The notes beneath the pieces are model-generated. The model was not told where the DNA came from, made no database searches, and was given only the letters and a program-made list of their open reading frames with translations. A DNA stretch of 64,000 bases from a virus, in IMG/VR virus record IMGVR_UViG_3300034159_000041, positions 2,614-66,613 of that record; one strand, 5' to 3'. Numbering within the stretch: position 1 is the stretch's first letter; each line of letters starts with the position of its first letter. Shown piece by piece: positions 2,898 to 58,509 of this stretch. Position numbers and translations under genes: made by a program.

Positions 2898-2898
2898 A

Positions 2899-3054: not shown

Positions 3055-3055
3055 T

Positions 3056-4596: not shown

Positions 4597-5144
4597 GGCG
4601 TTGCTCCTGTTTTGAAGATCGAACCGACCCACGCAATCCCATATTTCGAGACCACCCAAGCCACCACCGCCGCCGCCGCGATGACCAACACCATCGTTGC
4701 GCGCGTCATTTTTGATAGATTCGTGGTCGCGGTTTCCGCTTTGGTGGCGGCTAAGTGCGCCTGATCCACCGCGCGACCCGCGACGGAGCTTCCGTGCATG
4801 ACGATCGTCATCATCTCTTGATGCTGCGCTTCGTTTTGAGCGCGCGTTGACTTCATTTCAGTCACAATCCCTTTCAGCGCCTCCGTATTTTGTTCCATAT
4901 AGGCGCGCGAGGCTTCGCGATGCTCCGCGAAAATACTGGCAATTTCGTCGGTATGATCCCGACTCATGGCAATGGCTACGCGGATATCAGCTAGGTCGCG
5001 CTCAAAGCCGTCTTTCCAGCCGCCGATTCTGCGGTTAAAGTCGCCTTGCTTGGCGTTGTGCTCAAACTGCATTGCCCACCGCCCTTCATTCGACCGCGCG
5101 CAGTCGTCATGAAACGGGCAGTCGGAAATGCTCGGCTCGCTCAA
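4593..5144 (-). CDS. Coiled-coil protein with C-terminal TM (lysis-associated candidate)
   Basis: MVLVIAAAAVVAWVV hydrophobic helix near the C-terminus. Confidence 0.5.
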   Translation of the reverse strand: MSEPSISDCPFHDDCARSNEGRWAMQFEHNAKQGDFNRRIGGWKDGFERDLADIRVAIAMSRDHTDEIASIFAEHREASRAYMEQNTEALKGIVTEMKSTRAQNEAQHQEMMTIVMHGSSVAGRAVDQAHLAATKAETATTNLSKMTRATMVLVIAAAAVVAWVVSKYGIAWVGSIFKTGATP

Positions 5145-5147
5145 GAC

Positions 5148-5432
5148 TCAGGCCACTACAGTTGAGTCTGGCACGGTGCAAACCAGAAACTCCTTGAATC
5201 CCGCGAAGGTGCATGTTCCATCTGCCAACTGAGCCAGGCGATCATGAAAGGCGACCTCACCATCAGTGATAGAAAACAGCGCTTTCATCGTCGGCAAATT
5301 ATCATTTGCAGCGGCATGACTCGCCGTTTTTCCTAACGCGGCTAAGGCGTCAATATGCTCTTGCGCTGCTTGAATATGCTTGAGCGCTTTCAATCCTAGC
5401 GCACTCTGCCCGACTTTCGTCATCGCGGCCAT
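5148..5432 (-). CDS. Hypothetical protein
   Basis: 94-aa ORF, tightly packed. Confidence 0.55.
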   Translation of the reverse strand: MAAMTKVGQSALGLKALKHIQAAQEHIDALAALGKTASHAAANDNLPTMKALFSITDGEVAFHDRLAQLADGTCTFAGFKEFLVCTVPDSTVVA

Positions 5433-5433
5433 G

Positions 5434-5853
5434 TCATTTCCCCTTTGTTAGCGTTTGCAGCGCATCGATTGCGTTGCGTGTTTCTGGGTCGAGTTTGGCA
5501 GCATCTAAGGTTGCCTGCGCTTCACGCATTTCACGTTGCCGCGCAGTAACAGGAAAGATATGCTGCACAAGATGCGCAAAATTTTGCCTCTCTGCTTCTG
5601 CTTCACGTTCAGCGTCGGAACCATTCGGTACTTGATACCAGATACCATCTTGCTCTAGTACCCATTCACTACCAAGTAGGCAGTGATCAGATGTCGGTAC
5701 ATGCGCAACATAGCCTGCACTCGCAAGTATCTCGACAGCCAGCGCATCCCCGCCAGTCGCACGCGCAATTAGGGCGGCGGTGTCCTGGTGGTTGCCAGCG
5801 TAGGGTATGAATGGGGGTGGCGGAAGCCTCGTAGATTCGTGTAGGTATAGCAT
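5434..5853 (-). CDS. Hypothetical protein, possible tail-fibre chaperone
   Basis: Directly downstream of the receptor-binding gene. Confidence 0.5.
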   Translation of the reverse strand: MLYLHESTRLPPPPFIPYAGNHQDTAALIARATGGDALAVEILASAGYVAHVPTSDHCLLGSEWVLEQDGIWYQVPNGSDAEREAEAERQNFAHLVQHIFPVTARQREMREAQATLDAAKLDPETRNAIDALQTLTKGK

Positions 5854-5862
5854 TAAAGCACC

Positions 5863-42425: not shown

Positions 42426-45400
42426 CTAACCCCCGAACGCCGCGGCGGCCTCCTGGCGCAGTTCCGGAGACAGCGCCTTCAGGAACCGCTCGCTGTTGGT
42501 TAACTTCAACGCGCGGATGCGCGCCCGCAACTGCGCCGGTTTCCACTCAATCGGCGTGTCCGGGTTGGTGCGGTTCCAGTCGGCGATGTCGCGCTGTGCC
42601 TTGGCGACCCCGGCCTGATCCCGCTTAACCGCGGCCTGCGCCATGTTGCCCATGTAGGTCTGCTCCATCTTCTTGCGCAGGCTGTCGCGCTCCAAGATGC
42701 TGTATTTCTGCTCATTGAACTGCGCGACGCGGGTCGGGTTGAACCCCAAGAACTTGAACGCCGCCTCGGTGCGCGACACCGGGATCAGCGGGGTGCCGAA
42801 GCGATCCACCGCATCCCCGCTCACCATGGCCGTGGTGCCGTCAACAAAGCCCTTGAGCGCCCGCGGCAAGAGGGCATAGCCGGCCCGGTCCCACTGCCCG
42901 CGCGCCGCCTGCTCGACGGCGGTCCCCACATCCTTGACCACGCCCGCAGTTGGCCCCCACAACTCCGAGACCTCGCGCGTGCTGCCCAGGCTGGAGGGCT
43001 TGAGGATCCCGGTCGCGGGGATCAGGTTGCCCATGCCGACGCGACTGGCGATGTCAAACGGCAGTCCGGCCCGGCTGATCCCGTTCACCACCACCGGGCC
43101 GATGGCCTCGCCCAGCAGTTTCTCGGCCCAGGTGTTGAGTTCCTGGCGGGTCTGCCAGTTCTTCCCCCACCACTGCATGATGGTGTCAATCAGGTCCTCG
43201 GCGTCTTCTTCCCCAGGCAGGCCCCCGAGACCGGCCCCGACCACCAGGGCGGCAAGCATCAGCGCCCGCTGCTTGGTCGGGACGCGCGAGAGCAATTCCA
43301 TGTACTGCACGGAGAACATGCGAAACGTGAAAAGAGGAGCGCCGATCCCGCGCGCCCACGGCGGCCGGTTTTCCTTGCGCATCACAAACTGCGTGCTGTT
43401 GACGCCATCCTCGGCGTACTTGAATGCGGCCTCACCTTTCAGCCCGTTGCCTTCTGCCTGGCGGTAGGCCGCGACGAACGTCACCTGTCGGTTCACTTGC
43501 TCGGCCAAACTGAAGAACGACCCCCACACCGTCATGGCAAACTGCGCGTTCGGGCTCGACATGATCCGGCCGCCCCCCAGGGTGCCGCCGCGGGCGGTGG
43601 CCATCAGGTTGTAGACCCCCTGCGGTGCGATCAGCCCCTCAAGTTCAGCGCGGGCGTAGGCGTCCCCGAGCGCGGTCCCGGTGGCCGGTGGACCCTTGAA
43701 CACCTGCGCATAGGCGTCCTTGAGTAGCTGCGTCACGTTGCCCGGCTGCTGGGTCATCCAGGGGGCGGTGACCATCGGGACTTGCGAAAGGTTGGTCACG
43801 GCCGATGCCACGGACGCGCCGAGATACCACGCAAACAGGAACTGGCGCAAGCCGGCGAACTCTTCGTTCGGGTCGGCGAGGTAATCCCGTAAGTTGATCG
43901 CGTAGGTCCGCAAGTCGCCGTTTTCCTGCTTGATCGCGTCGATGGCGTACCCCACGTCGCCCGCGTTCAAGTTGTTGCTGGAGAGCCGGGCGTTGCTGAC
44001 GATGTAGGAGGCCAGCACGCGCTGCGCCTCGGTCGAGTACCCGGCGATGCCTTCGCGGTGCAGCAGACTTTTCAGCGCGCTGGACTCGGCCGCCGCCAAC
44101 CGGATGTACTCTTGCATCAGGTCGGCGAGGTTCTTGCCGTCGTCGGTGCTGGTGTCCATGTGGTCGGCGAACAAGCTCAGGGTGTCCATGTTCAAGCCGC
44201 GGAAGAGTTTGTAGCCTTCCTCGGACGTGATCCCATGCACCACCTCCTGCCCGGCCCCCTTGGCCTCACTCATGGCCTTGTAGGCGGCCATCTGTTCGGC
44301 CTCGCTCGCGTACTTGGCGAAGTAGATCACCGCGCGCTCGTTGGTGTCGGGGTCGGTCTGCCAGACGGTCACCGCCCACTTGCCGAAGCGCTTCAGCGGG
44401 AAGTAGCCCTCGGCCTTGAGCTTTTCTACCTTCTCGGCAATGCCATCGATAGACGCCTGAGTGGAGTCGATCTTGTTGCGCAGCGTCGTGGCCTGCTCGA
44501 ACCCAAGTTCCGCCGCCTCCAGGTTCTTACGCGATTGGTGCAGGCCAGACTGCGCGTCGTCCTGCGCCTCCTGCGCCCGCTGGAGCGCCGCGTAGGCGGA
44601 TGGGTAGTCAGCCTTGCCGGCCGCATCCAGCGCCTGCTGTGCGGCGCGGGTCGCCTTCTTGGCGGCATCCAGCGCCTGTTCGTCGGCGTCGCGCTCCGCG
44701 GTCATCGTCTTGACCATGTTCTGCGCGGTCACGACCGCCTCGGCCACGTCTTCCCGGATCGCGGAGAGCACTTGCTCGGCATTGCCGGCCGCCGCGGTGA
44801 CGTGCTCATCCATGATCTGCCGCGCCAGCCGCCCGGAGAGGGCGTGGCGCTCACGCTTGGGTAGGTCCGCGTGCAGCACCTCCAGCAGCGAGCGCATGGC
44901 CCCGACCTGGAAGGTCTGCGCCGACGTATCGAGCGACTGGTGCGTGGCCTTGAGCGCCTGGTTATAGCTTTCGATCTGCCGGTCGGAGCGACCGCGCGCC
45001 TTGAGTTCTGCGACGCTCCAGCGGTGCTTGTTGAGGGTGCCTTCGTTCAGGTCGGTCTGCACCCCGTGCAACTCGCGCGGGCTCATGGCGGAGCGCACCT
45101 GTTTTGCCGACGCCCACGCCGCGCCCATGCCCTTCTCCATCTGGGTGAACCAGTGCGGGGCCAGCGATTCGGCCTGCATGGCAAAGGTGGAGTTGTCATC
45201 AGACTGCCGGGTCAGCCCGTCGTAGACCGGCTTGAACTGCGGTTCGCGAATAGAGAGGTTGCGCGGTGTGCCCACGGACTTATCCCACGCGCGGACCTTG
45301 GCGGAGGTCTGGCGGCCGGGGATGCCCGCGCCGTAGGGCATGAACCGATCGAGCACGTCGGCGATGCGCGACGCCAGGGTGCGGGTTGCCCCCGGAGCCA

Positions 45401-48400
45401 CCCCCGCCCCGCCGATGGCGAAGCGGATGTCGGGGTCGGCGGATTCGTCCAACCGTCCGGAATCTCCGGATGGTTCGGCCTGCCCGCGGCCGGTGGCGAG
45501 GCGGGCGTTGGCGTCGCGCGTGCCCGTCCCCATCCCAAAGCGCCCCCGCAACTGCGCCCGTACCCGGTCATCCCCGGTGCGGTTGTATTGAGCCACCCCG
45601 GCGACGATCTCGCGCAGGTCGGCATTGTTGAGGTGGATCACGAGCCCGAGCTTGCGCAAGAAAGCGCGGATCGCGTTGTAGACCCGCAGCAGGAATGGCT
45701 GGTCCTTGCCGTGGTTGACCTCGGCCAGATGGGCCAGGAACTCGTCAGCGGCCTCGCGGCGCTGGGCGAGGCTTTCCATGGACAAACCGCGCGCATCCGC
45801 GTAAAGCTGGACATCAGCGTTGCGGTCCTTGATCAACTCATCTAAGAATGGGTTCAGGGTTGGCCCGAAAACAGACCGCGCGCCGGAATGCCACCCCTCA
45901 TGCGCAAGGACCGTGACCATCGCGTCGCGCACGTCCGCCACATTGTCAGCGACCACCCAAAGCACGCCCTTGGTCGGGTTGCCCTCTGCGTCTTTCGGCC
46001 CAGCCAGGAACACGGCTTTCCCGCGGGCGGTCGGATCAACACTGCGCGCCCGCGCCAGCCCCTCCAGCGTCGCGGCCGGTAGATCCCCCTCCGTCTGCAC
46101 CACCCGCAGCGTCGCGGCCCCAGACAGCCCGCGGAGCTTGCCAAACAGCGGTTGCAACTTCGCATCAAGGAAAGCCCGCGTGAGCCGGGGGAGCGCGGCC
46201 GATCGCGGGCGGGTTTGGGTTGCGCGGCCGAGCGTGCCGCCGATGGACCAGCGGGGTTCAGGGGCATCACCTCTCTGTGCCGCGTCACTGCGCGCCCGCT
46301 GAGCCTTAGCCGTCGCACCCAGCCCCTCCAGCACCTGTTCACCAATCCCGGTCGGCCGGTTCATCCGTTCCCACAGGCTCAGCGCCTGCCAGTCGTCCGC
46401 CGCCGCCCGCCGCACCGTGGCCCCGTGCGCCTTCAACTGCGCCAGGTCCTCGATGTTGATCCACCGCGGGGCCTGGGGCGGTTTGTTTTCCCACTCCACC
46501 ACCCACACCCCGGCCGGTAGCGCATCGGCCGCCGCCACGTTCGCTCCAGACGGCGCCACAAACGGATGCTCGGTGTACTTGCGCTCGCCGTTGGCGTCGC
46601 GTAGATCCAGGTACGACACCCGCCGCGCCCGCTCGCCATCGAGCACATGCACGAAATACCCGTCATCGGCCCATTGGTGCCCCTCGACCACTACCTCCTT
46701 GGTCTGCGGTCCTCGACTCTGTATAGGCTTCGTCGTTACACTTGCCCCCCCGGTGCCGGCGCCGGCCATTCCCCCGTGATCTGGTGTCTCGGGGTTTAGT
46801 TGAAGAACGTAGGCCAGCGTATCGACCGGCGCCCCATGACGCAGCCAGGCCGGCGCCGGCACCGGGTTGCGCGCCATGTCGGCTTCGATCTCATCCAAGC
46901 GGGTTTGCTTGCGCTCCAGGTCCTTGGCGCGGGCGAACGGTTGATCGGCCAGTTCCTCCAGCTTGGGACGGTCGGCTCGCAGGGTCGCGGCCTCGGCGCG
47001 GACTTGCCGCCCCGTGCCCCGTAGCCCGCGCAAGGTGTCGGCGACGGCGCCATAGACCCCGTAATGCACGACCGAATCAGTGAGCGACACCAGTTGCAGA
47101 TAGACGTTTTCTTTGCCGACATGGCGCCCTTCCAACGGGAACCCAAAGACCTCGCCGACCGGATGCCAGCCGCTTTTTACCGGCATCCGCTGATACAGCG
47201 TCTGGAACGCCTCGCCGAACGCATCCCGCGTGGTGAAGTGATCATTCAACAACCGCGCATCAAACGGCTTCGTCGTCGGCTCTTTCGGTCGCTCGCGCCC
47301 CTCGGCCTCGGCCGCTTTCACCGCCGCCTGCACCCGCTTCGCCAGTTCGCGATCGGGCTGCTTGTTGCCCCAGCCATCGGCTCGCACCGCCGCCCGCTCA
47401 GCCGCGGTCAGGTTCAGGTCCAGCCCATCGACATAGACCGCGACCTCTTCGCGGTAGGCATCCTGCTGCCGCTCCCCGGCCGCCGCCTCGGCTTGCTCGA
47501 ACAGGTCGGCATCCGCGTCATAGCGCTTGGCCTGCGCCTCTTTCTCCGGCACCAGGCGCTCATTGCGGGCCAACTTCTCACGCGCCTCCACCACCCCCTG
47601 CGCGTGGGTGCGCTCGCGCCGCTGGAGCTTCTGCACATCCACCGTCAACTTCTGCCGCTGCAACAGCCGCGGATCGCCCACCGCCTCGCTCAGCGTCTCG
47701 GCATAGCCGCCGCCCTCATCGTCGCTGACCGCATCGCCCTCAATGACCCTGGTGTCTGCATCCGCGTGCAGGAACGCCTTGATGAACCGATCCTTCACCG
47801 CGAGCACCTGCCAGCGCTTGCCGTCGATGCGCTCGGTGATGTAGCGATACTCCAGCACCGTGTTCCAGGTGTTGCCCTGACGCCAGCCGCGCCCGTTGCG
47901 CTGTTCCAACTCGCCCGGCATCCATGGGGCGTCCAAGTGGTGCATGGCACGCAGCCGTTGCTGCATGTTCACGCCGGTGCCCAGGGTCTCGGTCTGCCCG
48001 ATCACGATGCGCACCGTCCCGGCGTTGACCGCATCGGCCACCGCCTTTTTCTGCTCGGGCGTCACCCCGCCCGCGACGATTGCGATCTCGTGCGCCGGCA
48101 CGCCCTCGGCCAGCAGCTTGGTACGCAGTTCTTTGGCGAGGTTATGTCCCGGAACCTTCACCTTAGCGACCGTGCGCGTGTCGGAATAGCCCTTGTCCAT
48201 GAACACCACCTGAGCGGCCTGGGGCTCGCCGCGGTAGTGATGCAGGAGGTTACGGACCGCGCGGTTCACCTTGCTCTCGGGATGCTCCGGCAGGCTCAGG
48301 TCCTCCATGCGCGCATCCATCCCCGCCCGCGCCGCCGCGCCCTCAATCATGATCGGCGAGTGCGGATCGCCGGTCTTCATCCAGTCCAGCCGCTGTTTGC

Positions 48401-51400
48401 CACCCGCTGACCGCCACTCGGCCGCGAGTTGCTGGAGCCGCGCGAGGATCGCCGCTTGCTCCGGGCTCATCTCCGCCACGTCCATGACCACCCGCTTGTA
48501 CGGTCGCCCGACCGGGTTCTCCTGCCGCCCGTTCTGCAAGGCGTCGATCTCGTCGGCCGTCAGGTCGGCATCGGCCAGCGTCTTACCGCTCGCCGTCTTG
48601 CGCGGCGTGAACTCCGGCATCTCGTCGGCGAACACCACATCCATGTACGGACTCATCATCCGCCGCAGCTCGGCCACGTTGATGAACCCGGCCAGCTTGG
48701 TGACCGGCTGATAATCCCCGGCCGCCGTAAACTCCACATCCGACACGCCGCTCGCAAAGGTATTGAACCAGCTATCCCACTGGTCAATGCCGTCGCGCGC
48801 CATGTCCTGCTGCATGACATAGCGCTGCATGTGGAAGATTTCGGCCAGGGTGTTGGTGATCGGCGTGCCGGTGAACAAATGCACCCCACGCCCGGCGTGC
48901 TGCCCCTTGATGTAGTCGGTGAGGAACTTCAGGGCCACCGAGCGATTGCTGATCTGCTTTTGCAGCCCGCGCATTTTCATGCGCGTCGCCATCGGGGGCT
49001 TTTTGAAAAGATGGGCCTCATCGACAATCAGCATGTCAACGCCCAAGTCCTCAAACGCAATCGCATCCTCCCGGCTCGACTGCTGCGCCTGCTTCTCGAT
49101 CTGCGCCTTGATGCGCAGCCGCGCCTGCGCCAGTTCCTTGGCTGTCGGGTTGCGTAGCTTCTTGATGGCGTCCTCATCGTCCAGCATGTCCTTATGCACC
49201 GCCCGCCCGAATCCCGCCTGGTTTGCGTCGCCCTCGTCCATCGCCTCCCAGAAAGCCGACTCCAGGGCCGCGATATCCTCGGCCGCCAAGGCGCTCAGCG
49301 TCTCCTTTTTCAGCGTCAGCCGGTCCAGCAGGCTATGCGGCATCACCACCGCATCCCAGTCGTCGTTGCGGATTTGCGCCATGGTTTCCTTCACGCGCGA
49401 GGAATCCAGGTTGTTGACGTACAACACCTTAGCCCCTGGATACATCTCCTGAATCTCCGCCGCAACGCTGGCACTGTTGGCGTTGTGGGCCAGGATCAAC
49501 GGCTTTTGCGCCAACCCGAACCGCCGCGACTCGACTGAGATACCGCCAATGGTGTAGGTCTTGCCCGTCCCGACCTCATGGGCATACAACCCCGACCCTT
49601 GCACCAACCCCCGCCAGATCGCGTTGCTTTGGTGTGACCGCAGGTCAAACTCGTTATCCCCGCGCTGGAGCGCCATCCCATCAAACGCCAGGAAGGACCC
49701 GTCGAACTGCGGATCGGCAATCGCGTTCATCACCTCGTTGTAGTCGCGCTCCAGGGCCACCTTGCGCTCGGGTGACTTCCACACCCATTCCTCGAACGCC
49801 TCGCGGATCGCCCCGGCCCGTTCGTTGGCCGCGGCACTGAACGCCTCGCGGGTGTAGGTGTTGCCCTCTGAATCCTTCGCGGTAAACTTCATGGTCCCGT
49901 TGTTGAAAGCCGCTTCCAGCAACTGCCGCAAGCGCACCGTCCCGCTATCGCGCTCGCGCAACACGGGCTTGCCCTCGCCATCCAGCAGAGGAACGTCTTT
50001 TCCGGTTGCCGCGTCCTTGGTTGTGACTTCCTCAAACGCCTTGACCTCGCTCCACCGCAACGCCGTTGGCGTGTCCTGATGGGCATCGCTGGGCTTCACC
50101 ACCCACCGATTGATCCGCCACTCCAGTTCCAGGTTTTCCGCAACGTCGGCATTCCCAATGATCACCTCAGCCACGAAGTCGCGGTAATGCTTGGCGCCCA
50201 CCCACTGCGCCCCCAGCTTGGCCTCGATGTTGAAGTACGGCACATCCTTGGGGATCACCTTCTCCAGATGTTCGATGTTGCGGGCCATCTCCTCGCCCTG
50301 CTCCGCCGCCGCTTGTGCCTCGCGTAGCTTGCGCCGCACGTTGCCGCCCAGGTAGACATCAGAGGGTTCATAGCCGCCGCCCGGCAGCCGATAGACCGCG
50401 CCCGCCGTCACCAGGTCCTGTTCGGCCTGCTCCACCGGCACCCCGGCCGCCGTGGCAATCCGCGCCATGTCGATGTGCAGCCCCTGGTTGCGTTCCACCA
50501 CATAGGCATCGCGCACCGTGGGCCTGTCGATCTTCGCCGACGTGCGCACCACCGAGCGGTGCAGGATCGGCATCGGCTCGATGACGCCATCGCGCACCCG
50601 CTCCAGGGCCATCAGCGACGGGTAGAAGGGGTCCTCGGCCTTGTCGAGTAGGCGGATACCCTCGGACTCCCGCACCGGACCGTGCGCGTCGCGGAACGCC
50701 TCGTACTGCTCGCGCAGGGTCTTGCGCAACGCCTCGGTGTCGGGCGCCCCGTCGCGCTCTGCGTCGATCAGCCGTCCGTAGGCCTTGCGCAACCCCACCA
50801 GCCCGCGCAGTTGCGCGTCGCGCTTGGCGGTCTTCTTGGCGTCCTTCACCTGCCACGGCACCACGTCGTGCAGGTTCACCAGCCGCTCGCCCTGCGTCTG
50901 GTAGAGGTCACCATCCGCACCGATCACCACGGCGCGCGAGCGCTCCGTGGTGTTGTTGGTGATGTAGCGGATGTGTTTCGCGTTGTTCGCCGGGGTATAG
51001 GTCCCCGTCGTCATCTCATCGGCCATCGCCGCCAGACGCTCAGGGAAGTCGTCCCCGCGCTCAACGATCACCCCGGCCCGTCCGTAGGTCGTGCCGCTGC
51101 CCCATCCCAGTTCACCCAGGATGTTGTCGCGGTTGAGCAGGTAATACCGATTGATCGCCGCCTTCTGCCCGTCCGCCCCGAGGTCCAGGTCCTCGGTCTG
51201 CGTCCACGCTGATGATTGCGGGTCAGTGTTTTCCGTCTCGCGCTTTTTCAGGATGATCAGGTCGGTCACCACCGCGGTACCGGCATATTCCTTGAACGCC
51301 CCAGACGGCAGCCGATAGGCCGCCACCAGATCGGCCTTGCGCGCCAGCGCCTGGCGCACCGCGTTGCCCTTGCCGTCCAGGCTGTAGCGGCTGGTGATGC

Positions 51401-54400
51401 CAACGACCAAGCCGCCGGCCCGCACCTGATCCAGCGCTTTCAGGAAAAAGTAGTCATGCAGCGAGGGCGACAGTTTGTTGTAGCGTCGATCAGCCGGCCC
51501 GGTGCTGGCGAACGGCCAGTTGCCGATCACCAGATCGTAGAACCCGTCCGGGGTCTGCGACTCCTGATAGGGCTTGTTGCTGATCGTCGCGTTTGGGTAG
51601 AGGTGCTTGAGAATGCCCGACGAGAGTTCGTCAAGCTCAATGCCGGTCAGTTGGCTGGCGTCCTGGACTGCCTTCGGCATCATCGCAAAGAAGTTGCCGA
51701 CCCCCGCCGCAGGTTCGAGCACCCGTCCGCCCTGGAAGCCCAATCGCTGCACCGCCGCCCAGATCGCTTGTACGGTCGGCGGGTCGGTGTAGTGGGCATT
51801 GATGATACTGGCCTGCGCCGCCTTCCATTCGGACTCGCCCAGGTGCCCGCGCAGCCAATCATCCTCGTTGCGCCAGCCCTCGCGCTCGACGGTGCGCTCC
51901 CAGGTCCCCTGGAACAGTTCCTGCCCGAAACTCCCCCACCCGGTATAGCCGGCCAGGATGTCGCGCTCGTCCGCCGTCGCGTTCCGCCCGGCCTCTTCGA
52001 GTTCCCGATAGACTTCGATCGCCCGCCGATTCTTGTTGAACCGGACCTTCGGCGTTCCGCCGTAGATGCGTTCGGGTTCATCCGCGTGGAAGTTCTCCGC
52101 GCGGGCCGCCAGGTCTAGGGTCGTGCTTGGTTCGTCTGGGGTGACCGGCTCGACAGTGCCGCCTGCGCCCGTCTGATCTTCTGCGCCTGCACCCGCACCG
52201 ACAGCGGCACCCGCGCCCGTGCCGCCATCTCCAGCAGCGGCGTTAGGTCCCCGTCCGGGTCGCTTGGATCCTCGGGGCCTTCCGGGTCCACGATCAACCA
52301 GTCCTTGTTCGCTTCCTCCCGACTGTCCGGCCAGCCCATCCCCGCTTTCTGGTTCGCCTCGCTCGCCGCGAACCGGCGGCTCTCGATCAGGTGCGCGAAC
52401 TCCGCCAAAATCCCCGCCTGTTCCAATCGTGCCACCATCCGCGGGCGAATCTGCCGCCACAGGGCGATCATCTCCCGTTCCTTCTGGCCCCCGATCGGCC
52501 AATCCGTCTCGGCGATCCGGGCGCTCTCCTGCTTGATCTGGCGTATCAGTTGGCGGTCCATTGGTCGGTTCCGGTTGTGGTTCTGCTGTCAGTGTAGCCG
52601 GTTGCTGCGTGAATATCCGTGCCAACTCCGCTTTTACCGTCTGCGGATCATCCATCCCGTCAATACTAATCCCCGCATCCTCCATCATGTCCCGCGCGCC
52701 GTTGTACCACGAGCGCAGATAGGGGCGCAGTTTTGGCAACGGCTCGCCCAGGTCCTCGGCAATGCGCTTGGCGAACGCGGCAAACGAACGCGCCCCCGCT
52801 TCCAAATGGAACGCGGCCAATTCCGCGCCGATGGCGAGAATCTCCGGGTCGATGCCGGCGTTGAGTTGTGACAGCTTGGCCTTGAGTCGCTTGCGCAGTT
52901 CTGCGGCGCGGTCGGCCGTGACCAGGGTGTTGCTGGCACCGTAGGCGGGGGCTGGCTGGGGTTGCTCGGGGGGCTGCGCTGGGGCGGCCTCGGCCGGCGT
53001 CTTGGCGGCCGGCGTCTTGGCGGTCGGCGGTTCAGGCGTGGCCGGGGTCGCGGCTGCCGCAGGCTCGGGAGCGGCCGGCGTGGCACCATCGGGGCCAGCG
53101 TCAGGTTGCGCGCTCACCTTCTTGGCAACCTGCCACGTTGCGCCGACCTGACGTTGTGCAGCAACGATCCGCGCCAAGGCAACCGACGTGCCGGAGCCGG
53201 TCGCGCTCACGAAATGCAGTTCCGCATCACCGTAGCCGCGCGCCGTCACCGACTCCAGCACATACGGCTTATCCGGGGATAGGTAATCCATCTGCCCGGA
53301 CGCAAAGTCCGAGAAGGTCACCGTATCCCCTGGTGCCGCGCCCATCACCGAAGCGACCTTCTGCTGCGCCGCGCGTTGCTTGTTGGGTAGTTTTGGCTTT
53401 TGCGCCTTGGCACCCGCCGCGGCGCCCTCGGGGGCTGGGGTCGGAGCGGAGTTCGCAAAGTCAATCAGGTCTTGCGGAATCTCGCCGTACTTTGCGCCGA
53501 TGTAGGTAGAACTGACCAACTGGCCCTGATGGAATCGATCAAACCCATGTTCTGCAATCCACTTTAAGTGCTGCTGTCCTTCCGATATCTGCGGCTGATA
53601 CTCGGTCGTCAGCGCCTCGTTTGACTCTCCTGCGTCTCGGCGCTCCCGGCCCTGACGGCGCAGATCAGCCAAACGCGCACGAACCTTTGTTTCCAGGTCG
53701 TTCAGTTCAATCTCTCGCGCAGAAGGCGGGACCGGCTTGCGTCGCTCGGCTTCGTCTCTGGCTTTCTGTTCTTCGCGCGCCTTTTTCTGGTCTTCCCTGC
53801 GCTGATCGGCCTCTTGCTGTTGGCGCTCGACCAACTTCGCGTGCGACTGCGACGCCCGAGCATCACGCAAGGCGGAGTATCCCGACGCAAGCTCATGACG
53901 AAGTTGAGCGATCTGTGGTTGTACGCGGGCGGCTGCGGCGCGACGCTCGTCAATGGCCCCTACCGTCTGGAAATGCCCCTGATCGTCGGTGATGAATCTC
54001 CCATCTTCCGCGTCGTATCCGGTCACATTGGCGACGCCTTCCAGAAGACGAGCGGCCTCCTTGATATGACGATTGCGCAAGTCGTTCAGTGGTGCGGTAT
54101 CTGGCAATCTCCCAGCAGCGACGTCGGAAGAGAACGCTTTTAGCCAGTCGTCATACGATCTTGCTGCAACCGTCAAGGATTCCTTGTCAGTTGGGGCGGG
54201 CGTTGTCGGCTCCGGCGTCAATTCCTTGACGGTCGGCGTCGGCTGGGTGACAACCGGCGTCTCGACAGTAGTTGCCCCTGCCGCATCACGCGCCGCCTTG
54301 CCTTCCTTCCAGCCTTGGCGCCGCGGAACTAAAGAGGCCGCTGGCTCAGGCTTACCGGCCAGGCCGTCAGCGTAGCCGGCGTCGCGGGCGGCTTGGGCTT

Positions 54401-57400
54401 TGGGGGAGAGCGCGGGCGTCGGCTTTGTGCCGGTCGTTGGCGGCTCCGGCGCGGTAACCTCATCGCTCAGATCGACAACAGCAAACTTTGACGGTCGAAT
54501 TGAGTTGGTCGCCTTCGCGTTGAGGTGGCTGTCGCGCTCGGAGTCGTCAGCGACCTTCTGGGCGTGGTCACGATCCTGCAAGACCGCATCCTTTCCCGTG
54601 ATCCCATCCTTTAGGAACCGTCCGGTTCTCAGGTTTCTGACCTTGAACCCGGTTGGCATGGGGGCCGGTGTGCCGCCGCCCTTCGCCGCTGGTGTCTCTC
54701 CTTGGTCCGCTGCCGGCGCAATCCGCTGGTCCTGCACCTGCCACCCAATGACGCCCGTCTCTTGGTCAACATAGCGCGACACCACGCCAAGATTCACCAG
54801 GTGACGCATCATGCGCTGCTTGTCCGCAGTGTCTTCCGGATGCGGCAACGCGCGCTCAAGCGGGTTCCGCGGGTCAAAGAATCGCGTGTTCCACTCGCGC
54901 GCCTGGTCAACCAGTCGCCGCTGCTTCTCATTCAAGGCCACCGGCCGCGCTTTCTGTTCGGCGTCCTTATCCAGCCGCGCGGACGCTTCCCGGTCCTCAA
55001 GAACCTTGATCCACGGCCCTGGTCTGGCGCGAACAGATCGCTCTAGGTCGTCAACCGACTCAGTTCTGAACTCGGCCAATCGCCCAGCCAACTCCCGAGC
55101 CGTGAGCGACTTTGCGCCAACCTGATACCGTCTGCCGTTTTCTTCCTTCGTTGGTTCCTTGCCTTGGTCCGCTGCCGGCGTGTCAGGCGCTCCCGGCGCT
55201 GCTCCGGTGTCTCGGGGGGGCTTAACCTCGGGGGTCGGCGTGGGGCTCGGGGGCGGGCTGCTGGGGGCATTGGGGTCCTCAGTGGGGGTCGGCTGAGTCG
55301 GAGCCGGCTCGTTGATGTTCGTCCACCAGTCATCCAACCGCTTGCGCACCGCAGGGTCTGCAATCGGGGAACCTGGCGGAACCTTCGGGTCATAGCCTTT
55401 ACCCGTCTGCTTCGTCCCCGCACCTGGTAGCACCGCGCCGACGTTGGAGCCATAGAGCGCACCGGCCGCTCGTGCTTCGTCCTGGCCTTGCAGGGTGAGG
55501 GGTCCGGGCGCCGTGGTCAGGCCGGCGTTGGGGTCCATGCCTCCCAGCCCGGACGGACCACCTTGCGGACCACTGGGACCGGGTGTCCGTCCAGCGCCTT
55601 CAGTTGGATATCCAAGATCGTCAACCCCGGACCCTGGTCGAAGGGCACCGGGTTGGACGGCCGCCCCATCAGCGCCGCGAACCGCAGCGACTCCGACGTT
55701 TGTTCCGCTCGCCGCCCCAGGTGCCGGACCAGCCGGAGGTACAGGACGCGCGCCCCCGCCCACCGCTTGGCCTGCTGGCGGGCCTGCTTGTCCCGCGCCC
55801 GCTGCTTGTTGGACTGCGTTCTGGCTGACATTGGGTGGTCCTGCAGTTTGTGCTGCGCGGGTTAGGGGGCCGGTCTTCGGTCGGTTGGCAAGCGCCGCCG
55901 CGGTCGCCGCTGCAACCCGCTGCAGGTCCTGCGGGTCGGTCTCTGCTGCGGTTGCATCGACCGCGGCTTGCTTAGCCTGCGCGTCGGTCAGCGTCGGGTT
56001 GGCGACCGCGGCACGCGCCGCCACTTCACGATAGGCGGCGTCCTGGTCGATAGCGACCGGGAGGTTTGCGGCCACCGATGCGCTGGCGTAGGCGCGGAAG
56101 ATGCGCGCGAGTTCCGGGTCTTCCTGCTGGACGGATCGCGCAACGGTATCCACCACCGCCTGCCGCTCTTGCGGGGTTCCTGCCGCGGGGTCGGTCAGTA
56201 GCCGGTTGGCCTCGCTGCGCCGGTACGCGCCGAACGCATGAGCGCCGCCAGCACCAAACGCCGTCATCACCAGCGTCGGGACCACGACGCGCTTGGCATC
56301 GTCCCATGTTGGCATCGCCCCGGCACCGTACAGCGACTCGACGCCCTGCTCGCCGGCCTGTTGGCCCATCTCCGTTGCGATTTCAGCCGGCGCCACCTGA
56401 AACGCGATGTCTTTTGCCGCCCGCAGAATGGCTCCTTGGTTGGTCGCCGCGCGCTGCACCACGTCGGCGCTCGCATCCGCACCGGCCATGCCCAGACGTT
56501 TGGCGATGGCGCTGGTCACCCCGAGCTTCAGGCTTGGGGGAATGAGCGCGCCAGCCTTGGCCAGCAACAGCGTACTGACCACTTCTCCAGCGCCTTCGAT
56601 GCTGGCGTTGATCAAGCCGGCATGCATCCCGGCCTCGTGGGCATCCTCGGGAGAGAGTCCGGCCTTGATGTTGGCGTCCGTGACCTTGCGATAGGTTTCC
56701 TCGCCCTGCTGCCCGGACATCCCAAGAATCCCCAGCACCCCGCCGATGGCCGCGCCGCCGATCGCGCCGACCGCTGCACCTGGACCCGTCCAGGCGGTCA
56801 GGCCGGCGCCAATCGCCGCCCCCGTCGCCGCGGGTCCGAGCGACGGCACCAGGCTTTCCCCGGCTTCGGCGAGACTACCCCACGGATGCTCTTGCGCTTG
56901 GCTGGTCAAGGACTCTTTCATCCAGTCCGGGGCCGCCTCGGCACGCGCCGTCTTCTCGGCGTCCAGCCGCGCCAACTCGTCGGCCGTGGCGGGCGGGGCC
57001 AGTCCCAGGGCGCGGCCGAAGAACTGCCCTGACTCTTGAACCGTTTCCGGAAGGTTGCGGACACCTCTGGCAACGCTGCGCCCCAGTTCCTTGACACCAC
57101 CAACAAAGCCCTCGTTGGCGTGCAGTTCGTTGAGTCGCGCCAGATGCTGCGGAGCGGTTTCGTTGGGAAGGATACCGGGTTGCGTCAGGTCGGGTTTCTG
57201 CGCGAGCGGCGGCAGCGGGGGCGGAACCGGAGGCGACCCGACGACGTTGAGTTGTTCGACCGGCTCCAGCGAGGCCAGGGCCGCGTCGCGCCAGGAAGGG
57301 GCCTTGCTCGAGGCGGGCTGCTCCAGCGACGCGAGGGCCGCGTCACGCCACGATGGGGGGGGCGGCAAGGGCTTGAGGACCGGCGCACCAAGGCCCAGCG

Positions 57401-57455
57401 GGGGCGTTGCCGGAAGAGGGGCAAGCAGCGGGTCAAGGTCAAATGCGCCGGGCAT
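42426..57455 (-). CDS. Giant virion-associated polyvalent protein: DarB-like N6-adenine MTase, SF2 helicase, HExxH and PLxRFG regions
   Basis: VLEPAAGVGNF (~51700), GNWPF (~51515), HEVGTGKT (~49570), DEAH (~49015), QRNGRGWRQGN, HEGWH (45888-45902), PLKRFG (~44390). Confidence 0.88.
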   Translation of the reverse strand: MPGAFDLDPLLAPLPATPPLGLGAPVLKPLPPPPSWRDAALASLEQPASSKAPSWRDAALASLEPVEQLNVVGSPPVPPPLPPLAQKPDLTQPGILPNETAPQHLARLNELHANEGFVGGVKELGRSVARGVRNLPETVQESGQFFGRALGLAPPATADELARLDAEKTARAEAAPDWMKESLTSQAQEHPWGSLAEAGESLVPSLGPAATGAAIGAGLTAWTGPGAAVGAIGGAAIGGVLGILGMSGQQGEETYRKVTDANIKAGLSPEDAHEAGMHAGLINASIEGAGEVVSTLLLAKAGALIPPSLKLGVTSAIAKRLGMAGADASADVVQRAATNQGAILRAAKDIAFQVAPAEIATEMGQQAGEQGVESLYGAGAMPTWDDAKRVVVPTLVMTAFGAGGAHAFGAYRRSEANRLLTDPAAGTPQERQAVVDTVARSVQQEDPELARIFRAYASASVAANLPVAIDQDAAYREVAARAAVANPTLTDAQAKQAAVDATAAETDPQDLQRVAAATAAALANRPKTGPLTRAAQTAGPPNVSQNAVQQAAGAGQAGPPAGQAVGGGARPVPPAGPAPGAASGTNVGVAAVRGADGAAVQPGALRPGSGVDDLGYPTEGAGRTPGPSGPQGGPSGLGGMDPNAGLTTAPGPLTLQGQDEARAAGALYGSNVGAVLPGAGTKQTGKGYDPKVPPGSPIADPAVRKRLDDWWTNINEPAPTQPTPTEDPNAPSSPPPSPTPTPEVKPPRDTGAAPGAPDTPAADQGKEPTKEENGRRYQVGAKSLTARELAGRLAEFRTESVDDLERSVRARPGPWIKVLEDREASARLDKDAEQKARPVALNEKQRRLVDQAREWNTRFFDPRNPLERALPHPEDTADKQRMMRHLVNLGVVSRYVDQETGVIGWQVQDQRIAPAADQGETPAAKGGGTPAPMPTGFKVRNLRTGRFLKDGITGKDAVLQDRDHAQKVADDSERDSHLNAKATNSIRPSKFAVVDLSDEVTAPEPPTTGTKPTPALSPKAQAARDAGYADGLAGKPEPAASLVPRRQGWKEGKAARDAAGATTVETPVVTQPTPTVKELTPEPTTPAPTDKESLTVAARSYDDWLKAFSSDVAAGRLPDTAPLNDLRNRHIKEAARLLEGVANVTGYDAEDGRFITDDQGHFQTVGAIDERRAAAARVQPQIAQLRHELASGYSALRDARASQSHAKLVERQQQEADQRREDQKKAREEQKARDEAERRKPVPPSAREIELNDLETKVRARLADLRRQGRERRDAGESNEALTTEYQPQISEGQQHLKWIAEHGFDRFHQGQLVSSTYIGAKYGEIPQDLIDFANSAPTPAPEGAAAGAKAQKPKLPNKQRAAQQKVASVMGAAPGDTVTFSDFASGQMDYLSPDKPYVLESVTARGYGDAELHFVSATGSGTSVALARIVAAQRQVGATWQVAKKVSAQPDAGPDGATPAAPEPAAAATPATPEPPTAKTPAAKTPAEAAPAQPPEQPQPAPAYGASNTLVTADRAAELRKRLKAKLSQLNAGIDPEILAIGAELAAFHLEAGARSFAAFAKRIAEDLGEPLPKLRPYLRSWYNGARDMMEDAGISIDGMDDPQTVKAELARIFTQQPATLTAEPQPEPTNGPPTDTPDQAGERPDRRDGLADRGPEGTGDDRPVAADSPADGGTIGTGGDFGGVRAPDREPPVRGERGEPESGDGLAGQSGGSEQGLVDRGPGRPRGSKRPGRGPNAAAGDGGTGAGAAVGAGAGAEDQTGAGGTVEPVTPDEPSTTLDLAARAENFHADEPERIYGGTPKVRFNKNRRAIEVYRELEEAGRNATADERDILAGYTGWGSFGQELFQGTWERTVEREGWRNEDDWLRGHLGESEWKAAQASIINAHYTDPPTVQAIWAAVQRLGFQGGRVLEPAAGVGNFFAMMPKAVQDASQLTGIELDELSSGILKHLYPNATISNKPYQESQTPDGFYDLVIGNWPFASTGPADRRYNKLSPSLHDYFFLKALDQVRAGGLVVGITSRYSLDGKGNAVRQALARKADLVAAYRLPSGAFKEYAGTAVVTDLIILKKRETENTDPQSSAWTQTEDLDLGADGQKAAINRYYLLNRDNILGELGWGSGTTYGRAGVIVERGDDFPERLAAMADEMTTGTYTPANNAKHIRYITNNTTERSRAVVIGADGDLYQTQGERLVNLHDVVPWQVKDAKKTAKRDAQLRGLVGLRKAYGRLIDAERDGAPDTEALRKTLREQYEAFRDAHGPVRESEGIRLLDKAEDPFYPSLMALERVRDGVIEPMPILHRSVVRTSAKIDRPTVRDAYVVERNQGLHIDMARIATAAGVPVEQAEQDLVTAGAVYRLPGGGYEPSDVYLGGNVRRKLREAQAAAEQGEEMARNIEHLEKVIPKDVPYFNIEAKLGAQWVGAKHYRDFVAEVIIGNADVAENLELEWRINRWVVKPSDAHQDTPTALRWSEVKAFEEVTTKDAATGKDVPLLDGEGKPVLRERDSGTVRLRQLLEAAFNNGTMKFTAKDSEGNTYTREAFSAAANERAGAIREAFEEWVWKSPERKVALERDYNEVMNAIADPQFDGSFLAFDGMALQRGDNEFDLRSHQSNAIWRGLVQGSGLYAHEVGTGKTYTIGGISVESRRFGLAQKPLILAHNANSASVAAEIQEMYPGAKVLYVNNLDSSRVKETMAQIRNDDWDAVVMPHSLLDRLTLKKETLSALAAEDIAALESAFWEAMDEGDANQAGFGRAVHKDMLDDEDAIKKLRNPTAKELAQARLRIKAQIEKQAQQSSREDAIAFEDLGVDMLIVDEAHLFKKPPMATRMKMRGLQKQISNRSVALKFLTDYIKGQHAGRGVHLFTGTPITNTLAEIFHMQRYVMQQDMARDGIDQWDSWFNTFASGVSDVEFTAAGDYQPVTKLAGFINVAELRRMMSPYMDVVFADEMPEFTPRKTASGKTLADADLTADEIDALQNGRQENPVGRPYKRVVMDVAEMSPEQAAILARLQQLAAEWRSAGGKQRLDWMKTGDPHSPIMIEGAAARAGMDARMEDLSLPEHPESKVNRAVRNLLHHYRGEPQAAQVVFMDKGYSDTRTVAKVKVPGHNLAKELRTKLLAEGVPAHEIAIVAGGVTPEQKKAVADAVNAGTVRIVIGQTETLGTGVNMQQRLRAMHHLDAPWMPGELEQRNGRGWRQGNTWNTVLEYRYITERIDGKRWQVLAVKDRFIKAFLHADADTRVIEGDAVSDDEGGGYAETLSEAVGDPRLLQRQKLTVDVQKLQRRERTHAQGVVEAREKLARNERLVPEKEAQAKRYDADADLFEQAEAAAGERQQDAYREEVAVYVDGLDLNLTAAERAAVRADGWGNKQPDRELAKRVQAAVKAAEAEGRERPKEPTTKPFDARLLNDHFTTRDAFGEAFQTLYQRMPVKSGWHPVGEVFGFPLEGRHVGKENVYLQLVSLTDSVVHYGVYGAVADTLRGLRGTGRQVRAEAATLRADRPKLEELADQPFARAKDLERKQTRLDEIEADMARNPVPAPAWLRHGAPVDTLAYVLQLNPETPDHGGMAGAGTGGASVTTKPIQSRGPQTKEVVVEGHQWADDGYFVHVLDGERARRVSYLDLRDANGERKYTEHPFVAPSGANVAAADALPAGVWVVEWENKPPQAPRWINIEDLAQLKAHGATVRRAAADDWQALSLWERMNRPTGIGEQVLEGLGATAKAQRARSDAAQRGDAPEPRWSIGGTLGRATQTRPRSAALPRLTRAFLDAKLQPLFGKLRGLSGAATLRVVQTEGDLPAATLEGLARARSVDPTARGKAVFLAGPKDAEGNPTKGVLWVVADNVADVRDAMVTVLAHEGWHSGARSVFGPTLNPFLDELIKDRNADVQLYADARGLSMESLAQRREAADEFLAHLAEVNHGKDQPFLLRVYNAIRAFLRKLGLVIHLNNADLREIVAGVAQYNRTGDDRVRAQLRGRFGMGTGTRDANARLATGRGQAEPSGDSGRLDESADPDIRFAIGGAGVAPGATRTLASRIADVLDRFMPYGAGIPGRQTSAKVRAWDKSVGTPRNLSIREPQFKPVYDGLTRQSDDNSTFAMQAESLAPHWFTQMEKGMGAAWASAKQVRSAMSPRELHGVQTDLNEGTLNKHRWSVAELKARGRSDRQIESYNQALKATHQSLDTSAQTFQVGAMRSLLEVLHADLPKRERHALSGRLARQIMDEHVTAAAGNAEQVLSAIREDVAEAVVTAQNMVKTMTAERDADEQALDAAKKATRAAQQALDAAGKADYPSAYAALQRAQEAQDDAQSGLHQSRKNLEAAELGFEQATTLRNKIDSTQASIDGIAEKVEKLKAEGYFPLKRFGKWAVTVWQTDPDTNERAVIYFAKYASEAEQMAAYKAMSEAKGAGQEVVHGITSEEGYKLFRGLNMDTLSLFADHMDTSTDDGKNLADLMQEYIRLAAAESSALKSLLHREGIAGYSTEAQRVLASYIVSNARLSSNNLNAGDVGYAIDAIKQENGDLRTYAINLRDYLADPNEEFAGLRQFLFAWYLGASVASAVTNLSQVPMVTAPWMTQQPGNVTQLLKDAYAQVFKGPPATGTALGDAYARAELEGLIAPQGVYNLMATARGGTLGGGRIMSSPNAQFAMTVWGSFFSLAEQVNRQVTFVAAYRQAEGNGLKGEAAFKYAEDGVNSTQFVMRKENRPPWARGIGAPLFTFRMFSVQYMELLSRVPTKQRALMLAALVVGAGLGGLPGEEDAEDLIDTIMQWWGKNWQTRQELNTWAEKLLGEAIGPVVVNGISRAGLPFDIASRVGMGNLIPATGILKPSSLGSTREVSELWGPTAGVVKDVGTAVEQAARGQWDRAGYALLPRALKGFVDGTTAMVSGDAVDRFGTPLIPVSRTEAAFKFLGFNPTRVAQFNEQKYSILERDSLRKKMEQTYMGNMAQAAVKRDQAGVAKAQRDIADWNRTNPDTPIEWKPAQLRARIRALKLTNSERFLKALSPELRQEAAAAFGG
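52115..52561 (-). CDS. Nested +1-frame gene inside the giant protein (148 aa)
   Basis: Globular helical composition while the host frame becomes G/D/R/P-rich low complexity. Confidence 0.6.
   Translation of the reverse strand: MDRQLIRQIKQESARIAETDWPIGGQKEREMIALWRQIRPRMVARLEQAGILAEFAHLIESRRFAASEANQKAGMGWPDSREEANKDWLIVDPEGPEDPSDPDGDLTPLLEMAARARVPLSVRVQAQKIRRAQAALSSRSPQTNQARP
55043..55270 (-). CDS. Candidate nested +1-frame basic protein (75 aa)
   Basis: GAGGA RBS 5 nt before ATG. Confidence 0.35.
   Translation of the reverse strand: MPPAARPRAPRRPPRLSPPETPEQRRERLTRRQRTKARNQRRKKTADGIRLAQSRSRLGSWLGDWPSSELSRLTT
55517..55831 (-). CDS. Candidate nested +1-frame protein (104 aa)
   Basis: AGGA RBS 7 nt before ATG; host frame G/A/P-rich. 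Confidence 0.45.
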   Translation of the reverse strand: MSARTQSNKQRARDKQARQQAKRWAGARVLYLRLVRHLGRRAEQTSESLRFAALMGRPSNPVPFDQGPGLTILDIQLKALDGHPVPVVRKVVRPGWEAWTPTPA

Positions 57456-57528
57456 GGGAAGGGCCTCAGTTTTTGGACTTTGGGCTACGCCAAAATGGGT
57501 AAAAATCCCGTGCGTCGAGGCGTAGCCT

Positions 57529-57655
57529 CGCGCGCGTCTTCTGATATCACTCTAATACAATGTAATGAAGCGCGCGCGTTGATCACTCGCTGTCCCGTGC
57601 GACTTCACGCGCTATCCCGTGCCGCACTCACTCGCTATCCCGTGAGTTATCCACA
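57529..57655. promoter_or_regulatory. Putative TrfA origin: AT-rich stretch, three 17-bp iterons and DnaA box
   Basis: TCAC(T/G)CGCT(A/G)TCCCGTG at 57583, 57605, 57628; TTATCCACA at 57647-57655. Confidence 0.75.
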
Positions 57656-58509
57656 GCCTTGGTCAGCGTGACGAGGTGCTTGTCGACGCTCCACGCAGAC
57701 AGGAAACCGACCGCCTCAAGCTCCGCGAGGGCTTTCTTCAGCGTGGTCTTGGCGTTAACTCCGGTCAGGCCGGCCAGACTGATCAGGGTCTCCGATTGGT
57801 GTGGACCGGGGTCGCGATGCGAGGACAGGTAGGCGTGCAGGCTGCGGGCGGTGGGGCTCTTGAGGGCGCGGCGCTGAGTCAGATCAAGCGAAGACCAGGC
57901 GGATCGGAACAGAACGACAAAGCGCTCGTTGACGCTCAGGGTGTAGCGCTTCGTTACCTTGTCCCTGGCGCTGTCATTGATGAGATGGCCGTTGTATTCG
58001 TGGCCGTGGTCGTTGATGGTCACGGAACCGTCGACCAAGCGCTTGATGACCGAGCGTAGCCAGTCGTGGTCGCTCTTGCCCGTGTGACGCCCCAAGGCCA
58101 GCAGCATGTCATTGGCAGCAAAGCCCACCGAGCCCGACTGCCCGCGCATCCGATGCCAAATCTCCAGCAACACATCCAGATCGCTTTGGTCGAACTGCTC
58201 ACCGCGAAACGTCACCGTGACGCCCGTGACGCTGAACAGCGTCTCGTCCCAAAGCAGGCGCCGCTTGACGCGCCCCAGGGCCGGGAACAAAGCCGAGCGG
58301 AACGCCGATGAGGGCGCAGCGCGCAAGGCATGGTTCCAAAACGGTATCTGCAGCAGATTGACGGGAGGGGGCGGTGGGGGCGGCGCGGGCTGTTCGACAG
58401 GCGGCTTTTCGACTGGCCGCTTTTTGGGTCGTGCAATGGCGCGCTCGCCCACGCCAGCCATTTTGCGCCCGAGCGGGTTTAGGGTAGGATTATCTTCAGC
58501 CGACATCAT
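57628..58509 (-). CDS. trfA: TrfA-family plasmid replication initiator
   Basis: PFW....RAAP....RSALF, F.GEQFDQSDLDV, LLALGR.TGK....WL...IKRL. Confidence 0.8.
   Translation of the reverse strand: MMSAEDNPTLNPLGRKMAGVGERAIARPKKRPVEKPPVEQPAPPPPPPPVNLLQIPFWNHALRAAPSSAFRSALFPALGRVKRRLLWDETLFSVTGVTVTFRGEQFDQSDLDVLLEIWHRMRGQSGSVGFAANDMLLALGRHTGKSDHDWLRSVIKRLVDGSVTINDHGHEYNGHLINDSARDKVTKRYTLSVNERFVVLFRSAWSSLDLTQRRALKSPTARSLHAYLSSHRDPGPHQSETLISLAGLTGVNAKTTLKKALAELEAVGFLSAWSVDKHLVTLTKAVDNSRDSE

Follow-up and report, generated by a model that had tools for sequence, protein, structure and literature searches.

A 148-amino acid (aa) open reading frame (ORF), here termed N, lies at 52115–52561 on the minus strand of a 64,000-nucleotide stretch of viral DNA (the window; positions 2,614 to 66,613 of IMG/VR record IMGVR_UViG_3300034159_000041) and, as judged from sequence comparison, is very probably a real, conserved, and unannotated gene. 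N is nested in the +1 frame of a 5009-aa ORF that, by its sequence matches, is related to the giant 'DarB-like antirestriction' proteins of Bcep22-like and allied phages. Read in the nested frame, the DNA specifies a folded, all-helical domain of about 100 aa that is conserved and under purifying selection; read in the giant frame, the same bases give a disordered linker rich in Gly, Pro, Asp, and Arg, which is free to vary and is kept free of stop codons. From its N-terminus to its C-terminus, the giant ORF contains an N-terminal part, a domain that we call X, the linker, an N6-methyltransferase, a SNF2-type helicase, and a PLxRFG domain; the stop-free linker therefore keeps the methyltransferase-helicase-PLxRFG part connected to domain X and the N-terminal part. 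The fuller explanation, in which N would also be initiated independently and would have a role together with domain X, is one that we regard as likely. The virus record from which the window is taken is complete at 66,613 bp and carries direct terminal repeats.

Coding signature and conservation of the nested frame

N is located entirely inside the ORF at 42426–57455, at an offset of 4894 nucleotides (nt); this offset equals 1 modulo 3, and N is therefore in the +1 frame. Both its position and its translation were as given in the original prediction, a short reading of the DNA that had first pointed to this ORF. Measured from stop to stop, the nested frame spans 157 aa. Its length by itself is not beyond chance, as nine minus-strand alternative-frame ORFs of at least 80 aa occur within 48000–58000 and the nested frame stayed open in 28% of 5000 trials of synonymous-codon resampling of the host protein. 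The composition and conservation of the nested ORF are beyond chance. The G+C (GC) fractions at codon positions 1/2/3 across the ORF were 0.69/0.48/0.85 in the nested frame and 0.70/0.49/0.79 in the whole giant gene, and the giant frame at this place gave 0.84/0.69/0.49. Codon-usage log-odds preferred the nested frame between ~52625 and ~52235; on both flanks they preferred the giant frame. The Gly, Pro, Asp, and Arg content of the giant frame across the nested ORF was 57%, compared with 28% in the rest of the giant protein, in agreement with the earlier description of a linker rich in these residues.

Selection was measured over 77 gap-free aligned codons from six phages, with the methyltransferase region of the same phages as a control. 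Nucleotide divergence at nested codon positions 1/2/3 was 0.358/0.315/0.466, and the mean amino acid identity across the overlap was 54% in the nested frame versus 36% in the giant frame. The control displayed divergences of 0.283/0.258/0.501 and identities of 60% in its true frame and 37% in its untranslated −1 frame. The pattern of the nested frame resembles that of the control, so the overlap behaves as ordinary coding sequence in the nested frame, and the amino acid conservation of the linker is not above that of the untranslated control frame. Purifying selection acts on the nested frame only. The suggestion that selection acts on this frame was thus borne out by the codon signature, the divergence pattern, and the identities.

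Related regions were compared in 13 phages (USP_25, SopranoGao, Itty13, POI1126, Pavtok, Atu_ph08, DC1, Heva, Mwe-JY07, VvAW1, PBC5, BKO1-TP3, and Skulduggery). Stops in this frame of homologous giant genes, which had been named as the observation that would speak against the gene, were not what these regions revealed: 12 of the 13 have an open giant frame and, between domain X and the methyltransferase, a +1 ORF with a coding-type codon signal, and in the thirteenth, PBC5, the N domain is in frame with the upstream part instead. The frame relation is +1 in all 12 relatives with the embedded form. The switch of the codon signal to the nested frame occurs at the same place in USP_25, in eight of eight further phages, and in VvAW1 (50% GC); it is weaker in BKO1-TP3 and Skulduggery, with a weak signal in BKO1-TP3. 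The +1 ORF of USP_25 is homologous to N of the window (local tblastn E 2e-10), and a tblastn search of GenBank phages with N matched two Pseudomonas phages inside a 4899-aa giant coding sequence (CDS), the offset again being +1. The N gene is listed in none of the GenBank/RefSeq feature tables of the 13 relatives, as expected from the earlier claim that standard annotation would miss it. Full-text literature searches, and passages of PMC9144972 and PMC5512222, yielded no mention of an embedded gene or a frameshift in DarB-like genes.

The translated N matched seven gene-called proteins of 120–168 aa with 55–70% identity, and the alignment of these eight homologues (N included) contains 36 invariant columns and indels in codon multiples. 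A profile of N homologues searched against 1.84 billion cluster representatives recovered a family of 174 clusters at E ≤ 1e-3 (77 at E ≤ 1e-10), mostly of 57–200 aa. Among the best 150 of these 174 clusters, 146 had lengths of up to 200 aa and four were longer, with a maximum of 484 aa; none of the matches listed was a giant protein carrying the N domain in frame. The window-type N and a second, 'MNLNNW'-type subgroup (eight proteins) are homologous (hhalign probability 93.7%, E 1.9e-7). The homologues are mostly acidic, with a pI of 4.4–5.6 in 10 of the 11 other phages listed; the values are 6.3 for USP_25 and 8.2 for N of the window.

An AlphaFold2 model of N based on a 61-sequence alignment had a mean predicted local distance difference test score (pLDDT) of 88.1 and a predicted template modeling score (pTM) of 0.71. 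The model consists of five core helices (residues 3–88), an acidic stretch, and two further helices in the subgroup of the window; the conserved helical core corresponds to residues 1 to ~100. N of the window had no matches in Pfam (E ≤ 1), PHROGs (E ≤ 1), or NCBIfam, and Pfam gave nothing consistent across 61 family members. Foldseek of the model against the PDB returned no match at E ≤ 1e-3, the best BFVD match was unconvincing (E 0.089, to a 1093-residue viral protein fragment), and a wide VIA-align search reached a best Z of only 4.7. The modeled fold is thus unlike any known fold searched, and no fold was assigned. Searches for related loci with the N alignment recovered none in viral, metagenome, or genome contigs.

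Two longer family members place the N domain elsewhere, at the N-terminus of P0149 (275 aa) and at the C-terminus of P0101 (484 aa, apparently of low GC). Both are without a recognizable domain X, and N is therefore a mobile module with several architectures.

We consider it scarcely credible that N is a shadow ORF produced by chance in GC-rich sequence, or that an assembly frameshift artefact, made up of two sequencing errors, has moved an in-frame domain out of its frame, and that no separate gene exists. The ordinary length of the ORF fits such an origin, as does a second +1 signal in the same giant gene, at 55517–55831, that is apparently an artefact of this kind. The codon signature, the conservation of the protein, the codon-multiple indels, the confident fold, and the 174-cluster family argue against it, as do 12 phages, sequenced independently by different laboratories and from different hosts, in which both frame changes are repeated. 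The second signal (minus strand, host aa ~520–620) is a Gly/Pro/Ala-rich stretch containing a 104-aa ORF with an ATG start, P0173. As a candidate for a second nested gene, P0173 was rejected; it had no PHROG match and no conserved counterpart in the related loci compared, and the signal is therefore probably a compositional artefact.

The enclosing frame was examined in the same phages. After synonymous resampling of N, the giant frame remained open in 0.2–34% of trials per phage (3.7% for the window). In equal-length windows of ordinary coding sequence from the same giant genes, used as a control, the −1 frame was open in 0 of 1926 cases for SopranoGao, 0 of 3157 for VvAW1, 2 of 2078 for Atu_ph08, 10 of 1960 for POI1126, and 111 of 4523 (0.0245) for the window phage. 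The product of the per-phage open fractions is ~1e-18, a value computed over phages that are not independent of one another. Neither in the window nor in the 12 embedded-form relatives does the upstream part end in a stop codon of its own. Openness of the giant frame far exceeds chance expectation, and the nested frame is conserved; both frames are therefore maintained, and this is a true dual-coding stretch.

These data also bear on whether the upstream part, N, and the methyltransferase-helicase are three genes, the giant frame being open by chance in GC-rich DNA, which appears very improbable. Such chance openness is common in GC-rich relatives, where the −1 frame was open in control fractions of 0.49 (Itty13) and 0.42 (DC1); at the highest GC an open giant frame is thus not improbable, a point against our interpretation, and the linker conservation given above likewise fits three genes. 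However, no stop ends the upstream part in any of these phages, and the frame is open in SopranoGao, VvAW1, Atu_ph08, and POI1126, where the control counts make this very improbable.

Domain X, the start of N, and a possible role

Domain X, a conserved helical domain, is encoded in the giant frame. Pfam revealed nothing for it, and a plasmid search gave a single match, to domain X within an LPD38-annotated protein. In other sequences X and N form one polypeptide: a 19-member cluster of 222-aa proteins, represented by P0162, occurs on many contigs (the longest 67.9 kb), and X and N are also in one frame in P0148 (431 aa) and in gp22 of phage PBC5. Domain X of the window matched P0162 (BLASTP E 6e-9), that of DC1 matched the N-terminal half of P0162 with 47% identity (E 1e-30), and the X half of P0162 matched phrog_10089, a DarB-like family (E 4.7e-24). 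In the profile phrog_938 (2185 positions) the two domains adjoin, X at 1994–2069 and N at 2084–2173, the latter positions being matched by N of SopranoGao (E 5.4e-21) and Mwe-JY07 (E 2.4e-23). N of the window (P0001), which itself lacks a PHROG match at the threshold given above, is linked to this phrog_938-matching subgroup by the hhalign comparison between the two subgroups. Since X and N are fused in frame elsewhere, the most likely partner of N is X and not the methyltransferase. The original prediction had proposed a hidden partner (chaperone, inhibitor, or antitoxin) of the methyltransferase-helicase; this part was not borne out as worded, as nothing in the present data links N to the methyltransferase and the evidence on a partner points to X.

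A search for loci related to P0162 found none in viral contigs and one in a metagenome contig of low GC (L014, 4472 bases). Its X-N copy, located in the region 449–2028, is 90% identical to P0162, is broken in frame after ~150 codons, and is followed by an ORF resembling an insertion sequence transposase (1327–2028). No giant gene surrounds this copy, which shows that giant genes are not the only setting of the X-N module.

Several features of the N-terminus argue for translation from its own start. An ATG is found at the aligned N-terminus in all N homologues, and in 9 of 10 phages a core resembling a Shine-Dalgarno (SD) sequence lies 6–9 nt upstream of the nested ATG, with a strength at or beyond the 10th background percentile in 5 of the 10. 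The motifs include AAGGAGG in DC1, GGAGG in Heva and Mwe-JY07, and GAGG in SopranoGao and Pavtok; in the last two phages a nested-frame stop is positioned just two codons before the ATG. Because the ATG is conserved and SD-like motifs are present in most relatives, internal initiation is favored, and N is likely initiated independently on the mRNA of the giant gene.

In a programmed +1 frameshift, the main rival and unlikely in our assessment, some ribosomes would slip just before N and yield a protein of ~1770 aa ending in X-N beside the 5009-aa read-through product, and N would never be free. The occurrence of X-N as one polypeptide in the P0162 cluster, P0148, PBC5 gp22, and the phrog_938 layout is compatible with this, and so are the constant +1 relation in the 12 embedded-form relatives and the weak SD sequence of the window. 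The TGA at 52591 in the nested frame requires any frameshift into N to come after it, and in SopranoGao and Pavtok the shift would be confined to the two codons between the nested-frame stop and the ATG. Inspection by eye of the junctions of 10 phages, carried out as a visual comparison and not as a formal motif or structure search, disclosed no shared slippery or stalling motif. Moreover, a frameshift does not require a conserved ATG or SD-like motifs at initiation spacing, and gene callers report free-standing proteins of 57–200 aa for 146 of the best 150 of the 174 relatives.

With internal initiation as the preferred route, N would be made as a separate small protein from its own ATG on the giant gene's mRNA. 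It would then dock onto domain X, providing as a separate chain the half that other elements carry fused to X, and this docking would help to fold, assemble, or regulate the packaged giant protein. From the sequence relationships, N may thus be the trans-supplied half of an X-N module that helps to fold, assemble, or control that protein. As to origin, a layout of two genes, the first ending in X-N with its stop and the second beginning with the methyltransferase, could have been fused through the alternative frame of N. The complete scenario is a tentative one: a 'frame-bypass fusion' of two very large genes, after which N re-associates with X as an obligatory subunit for folding, packaging, or activity control of the ejected anti-restriction protein.

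The predicted complex of X and N scored 0.46, classed as 'weak support', compared with 0.01 for the best of three controls, and it is not counted as evidence here. Of 80 solved complexes, 58 attained the mark in use, as did 2 of 110 mismatched pairs; these counts apply only roughly here, because our own alignments were used for X and N. Scores of at most 0.60 reached the mark in only 7 of the 80 solved complexes and in both of the mismatches that passed. Runs for X and N had at least 84% contact agreement, with a partner pLDDT of at least 82.

A number of observations weigh against the explanation given here, in addition to the openness of the giant frame at the highest GC. The AlphaFold2 model of the fused 222-aa protein had a pLDDT of 94–98 in the N half and 55–76 in the X half with a pTM of 0.47, so that packing of X against N was not shown, and the in-frame X-N forms are also compatible with the product of a frameshift fusion. 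The function of N was read from context only, because its fold matches nothing known. The SD duplex of the window with the anti-SD sequence (GGAA, −3.5 kcal/mol) is weaker than the window background mean of −4.6 kcal/mol, as the original prediction had already noted of this ribosome-binding site; a scan around N found no promoter-like or terminator-like site, and internal initiation inside a translated ORF may be inefficient. The similarity of the +1 ORFs of DC1 and Heva to the N family reached an hhalign probability of only 25%, and those of BKO1-TP3 and Skulduggery had no detectable similarity to N (hhalign probability <1%).

The last two ORFs directly follow X in Bacteroides phage BKO1-TP3 (L016, 2982–3242) and Pseudomonas phage Skulduggery (L017, 2766–3152). 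They could be either a very divergent N or a different small gene in the same slot.

If the frame-bypass scenario is correct, N would be an obligatory, unannotated subunit in phages of Burkholderia, Ralstonia, Pseudomonas, Klebsiella, Erwinia, Agrobacterium, Ochrobactrum, Vibrio, and Microcystis. The gene that encloses N is the largest one in a widespread phage group, among whose members are candidates for phage therapy and biocontrol, and N defines a sizeable new family of small proteins with an unmatched fold. The assembly, packaging, and control of DarB-like giant proteins are poorly understood, and N may bear on all three. The claim that N is an overprinted gene stood insofar as two frames are used; its direction is reversed, since the linker of the giant gene looks like the overprinted frame. 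The enclosing gene and not the embedded gene would then be the newer reading, with a disordered linker overprinted on a folded domain, and the overprinted linker could represent the route by which two very large proteins became one.

The enclosing gene and its features

The giant ORF combines an N6-methyltransferase and a SNF2/DEAD-type helicase in one large P1-DarB-related phage protein, the combination used here to recognize a DarB-like protein. Its Pfam matches were Helicase_C (E 6.1e-8) and, more weakly, ResIII (0.0014), SNF2-rel (0.0045), and Eco57I (0.2), and its C-terminal PLxRFG domain matched NCBIfam NF032893 with 398 bits against a cut-off of 100. A 900-aa segment of the giant protein matched 137 phage records by tblastn, many of them named DarB-like antirestriction. 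The methyltransferase part matched P1 darB with 29% identity (E 1e-18, tblastn) and also ~126 phage records, many annotated as DarB-like. Positions of the features are compiled in Table 1.

Table 1. Features of the giant gene and of the embedded ORF N, in window coordinates.
Feature	Position	Strand	Basis or remark
Giant ORF, 5009 aa, DarB-like putative polyvalent virion protein	42426..57455	minus	ORF scan and domain/tblastn matches
Start of methyltransferase module, giant frame	51336..52097	minus	Normal codon signature back from ~52235; tblastn segment matches
Probable nested gene N, 148 aa and stop, ATG start	52115..52561	minus	+1 frame of giant ORF
Host-frame linker, host aa 1631–1780, Gly/Pro/Asp/Arg-rich	52116..52565	minus	−1 frame relative to N
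Weak SD-like GGAA, 7 nt 5' of nested ATG	52569..52572	minus	Atu_ph08 (Agrobacterium phage) has GGAG at the same place
Domain X, giant frame, host aa 1500–1625	52581..52958	minus	Directly upstream of N; conserved in relatives
TGA ending the nested frame 10 codons 5' of ATG	52589..52591	minus	First upstream in-frame stop

Among the homologues of the giant protein, only the 4515-aa one of phage JC1 is reported from virions, where mass spectrometry found it (PMC9144972). A proteomic search confined to annotated proteins, as apparently performed for JC1, would miss the product of N.

Annotation of the giant gene itself varies. For the Pseudomonas phage Itty13 (NC_070969.1, locus 1–7451; genome 68% GC), RefSeq places three CDSs on the strand opposite to the one matching DarB-like proteins; the strand that does match remains open across all 7451 bases of the locus. 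The giant gene of Itty13 is likely annotated on the wrong strand.

Comparison with known systems

A phage gene embedded in the +1 frame of another is a known kind of arrangement; what is new here is its location, its protein family, and the enclosing frame as the unconstrained one. The classic case is the gene for Rz1 (o-spanin), a secreted lipoprotein for lysis; it has its own internal start within Rz (i-spanin), and its product acts together with that of Rz. Both Rz1 and N are complete small genes that are read from the same strand as the phage gene enclosing them, in its +1 frame. Unlike Rz1, N has no features of a secreted lipoprotein, and its host is a 15-kb gene for a putative virion protein; the two loci also differ in that, for N, the normal coding signature belongs to the embedded frame and the enclosing one is unconstrained at that spot. 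Rz1 embedded in Rz is described for lambda-like and Bcep22-like phages (PMC9144972).

PBC5 gp22 and phrog_938, annotated as 'endolysin' or 'DarB-like', display X followed by N in the same neighborhood as in the window. PBC5 gp22, a protein of 2180 aa, ends with X and a segment containing MNLQNW, N forming its C-terminus in frame; the methyltransferase frame overlaps as an ORF of its own. Relative to Atu_ph08, the stretch between X and N in PBC5 is changed by a 1-nt deletion and a 12-nt insertion. Among the matches listed (60 of 73 records), PBC5 was the only phage with a one-piece X-N, and X and N were in two pieces in 15 records from nine phages. The one-piece form of PBC5 could be a derived state or a sequencing error in the 2001 record. 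In this Sinorhizobium phage (NC_003324.1, 7864–17647) the methyltransferase-helicase frame is open from 7864 and is annotated, as gp21, from 10075 only, which leaves ~1.6 kb upstream of gp21, including the N-terminus of the methyltransferase, unannotated.

Programmed frameshifting of the lambda gpG/gpGT type uses a −1 slippery heptamer and gives two products that share their N-terminal part and differ in frame downstream. Any shift at the present locus would go in the +1 direction; visual inspection showed no slippery motif there, and N carries its own ATG and SD-like motif.

TnpV (PF14198) is similar to N in size, in being helical, and in its occurrence on mobile elements; it differs in being transposon-encoded, whereas N is embedded in a phage gene for a putative virion protein. 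The loose resemblance to TnpV proposed earlier was recovered in part. Four of the eight 'MNLNNW'-type homologues matched TnpV over ~60 residues (best E 1.8e-4), all below the 27-bit cut-off, and PF14198 had no match at E ≤ 10 in the phage of the window, N included, nor any among 61 members of the window subgroup. A cluster of the ESM Atlas with TnpV on 11% of its members appeared at rank 20 with a score of 0.79. By these profile comparisons N is at most 'distantly TnpV-like', the matches in its family all falling short of the Pfam membership threshold.

In P1, a 146-aa accessory gene, ulx, adjoins darB as an ordinary downstream gene and is not embedded. Ulx was considered as a relative of N and rejected (hhalign probability 0.3%, E 0.18). 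Domain X is missing from P1 DarB, and no embedded ORF lies at its start.

Two long antisense ORFs also run over the region of N on the plus strand of the window, at 52219–52536 (105 aa) and 52305–52871 (188 aa). Such antisense ORFs are numerous across the entire giant gene, as expected at 65% GC.

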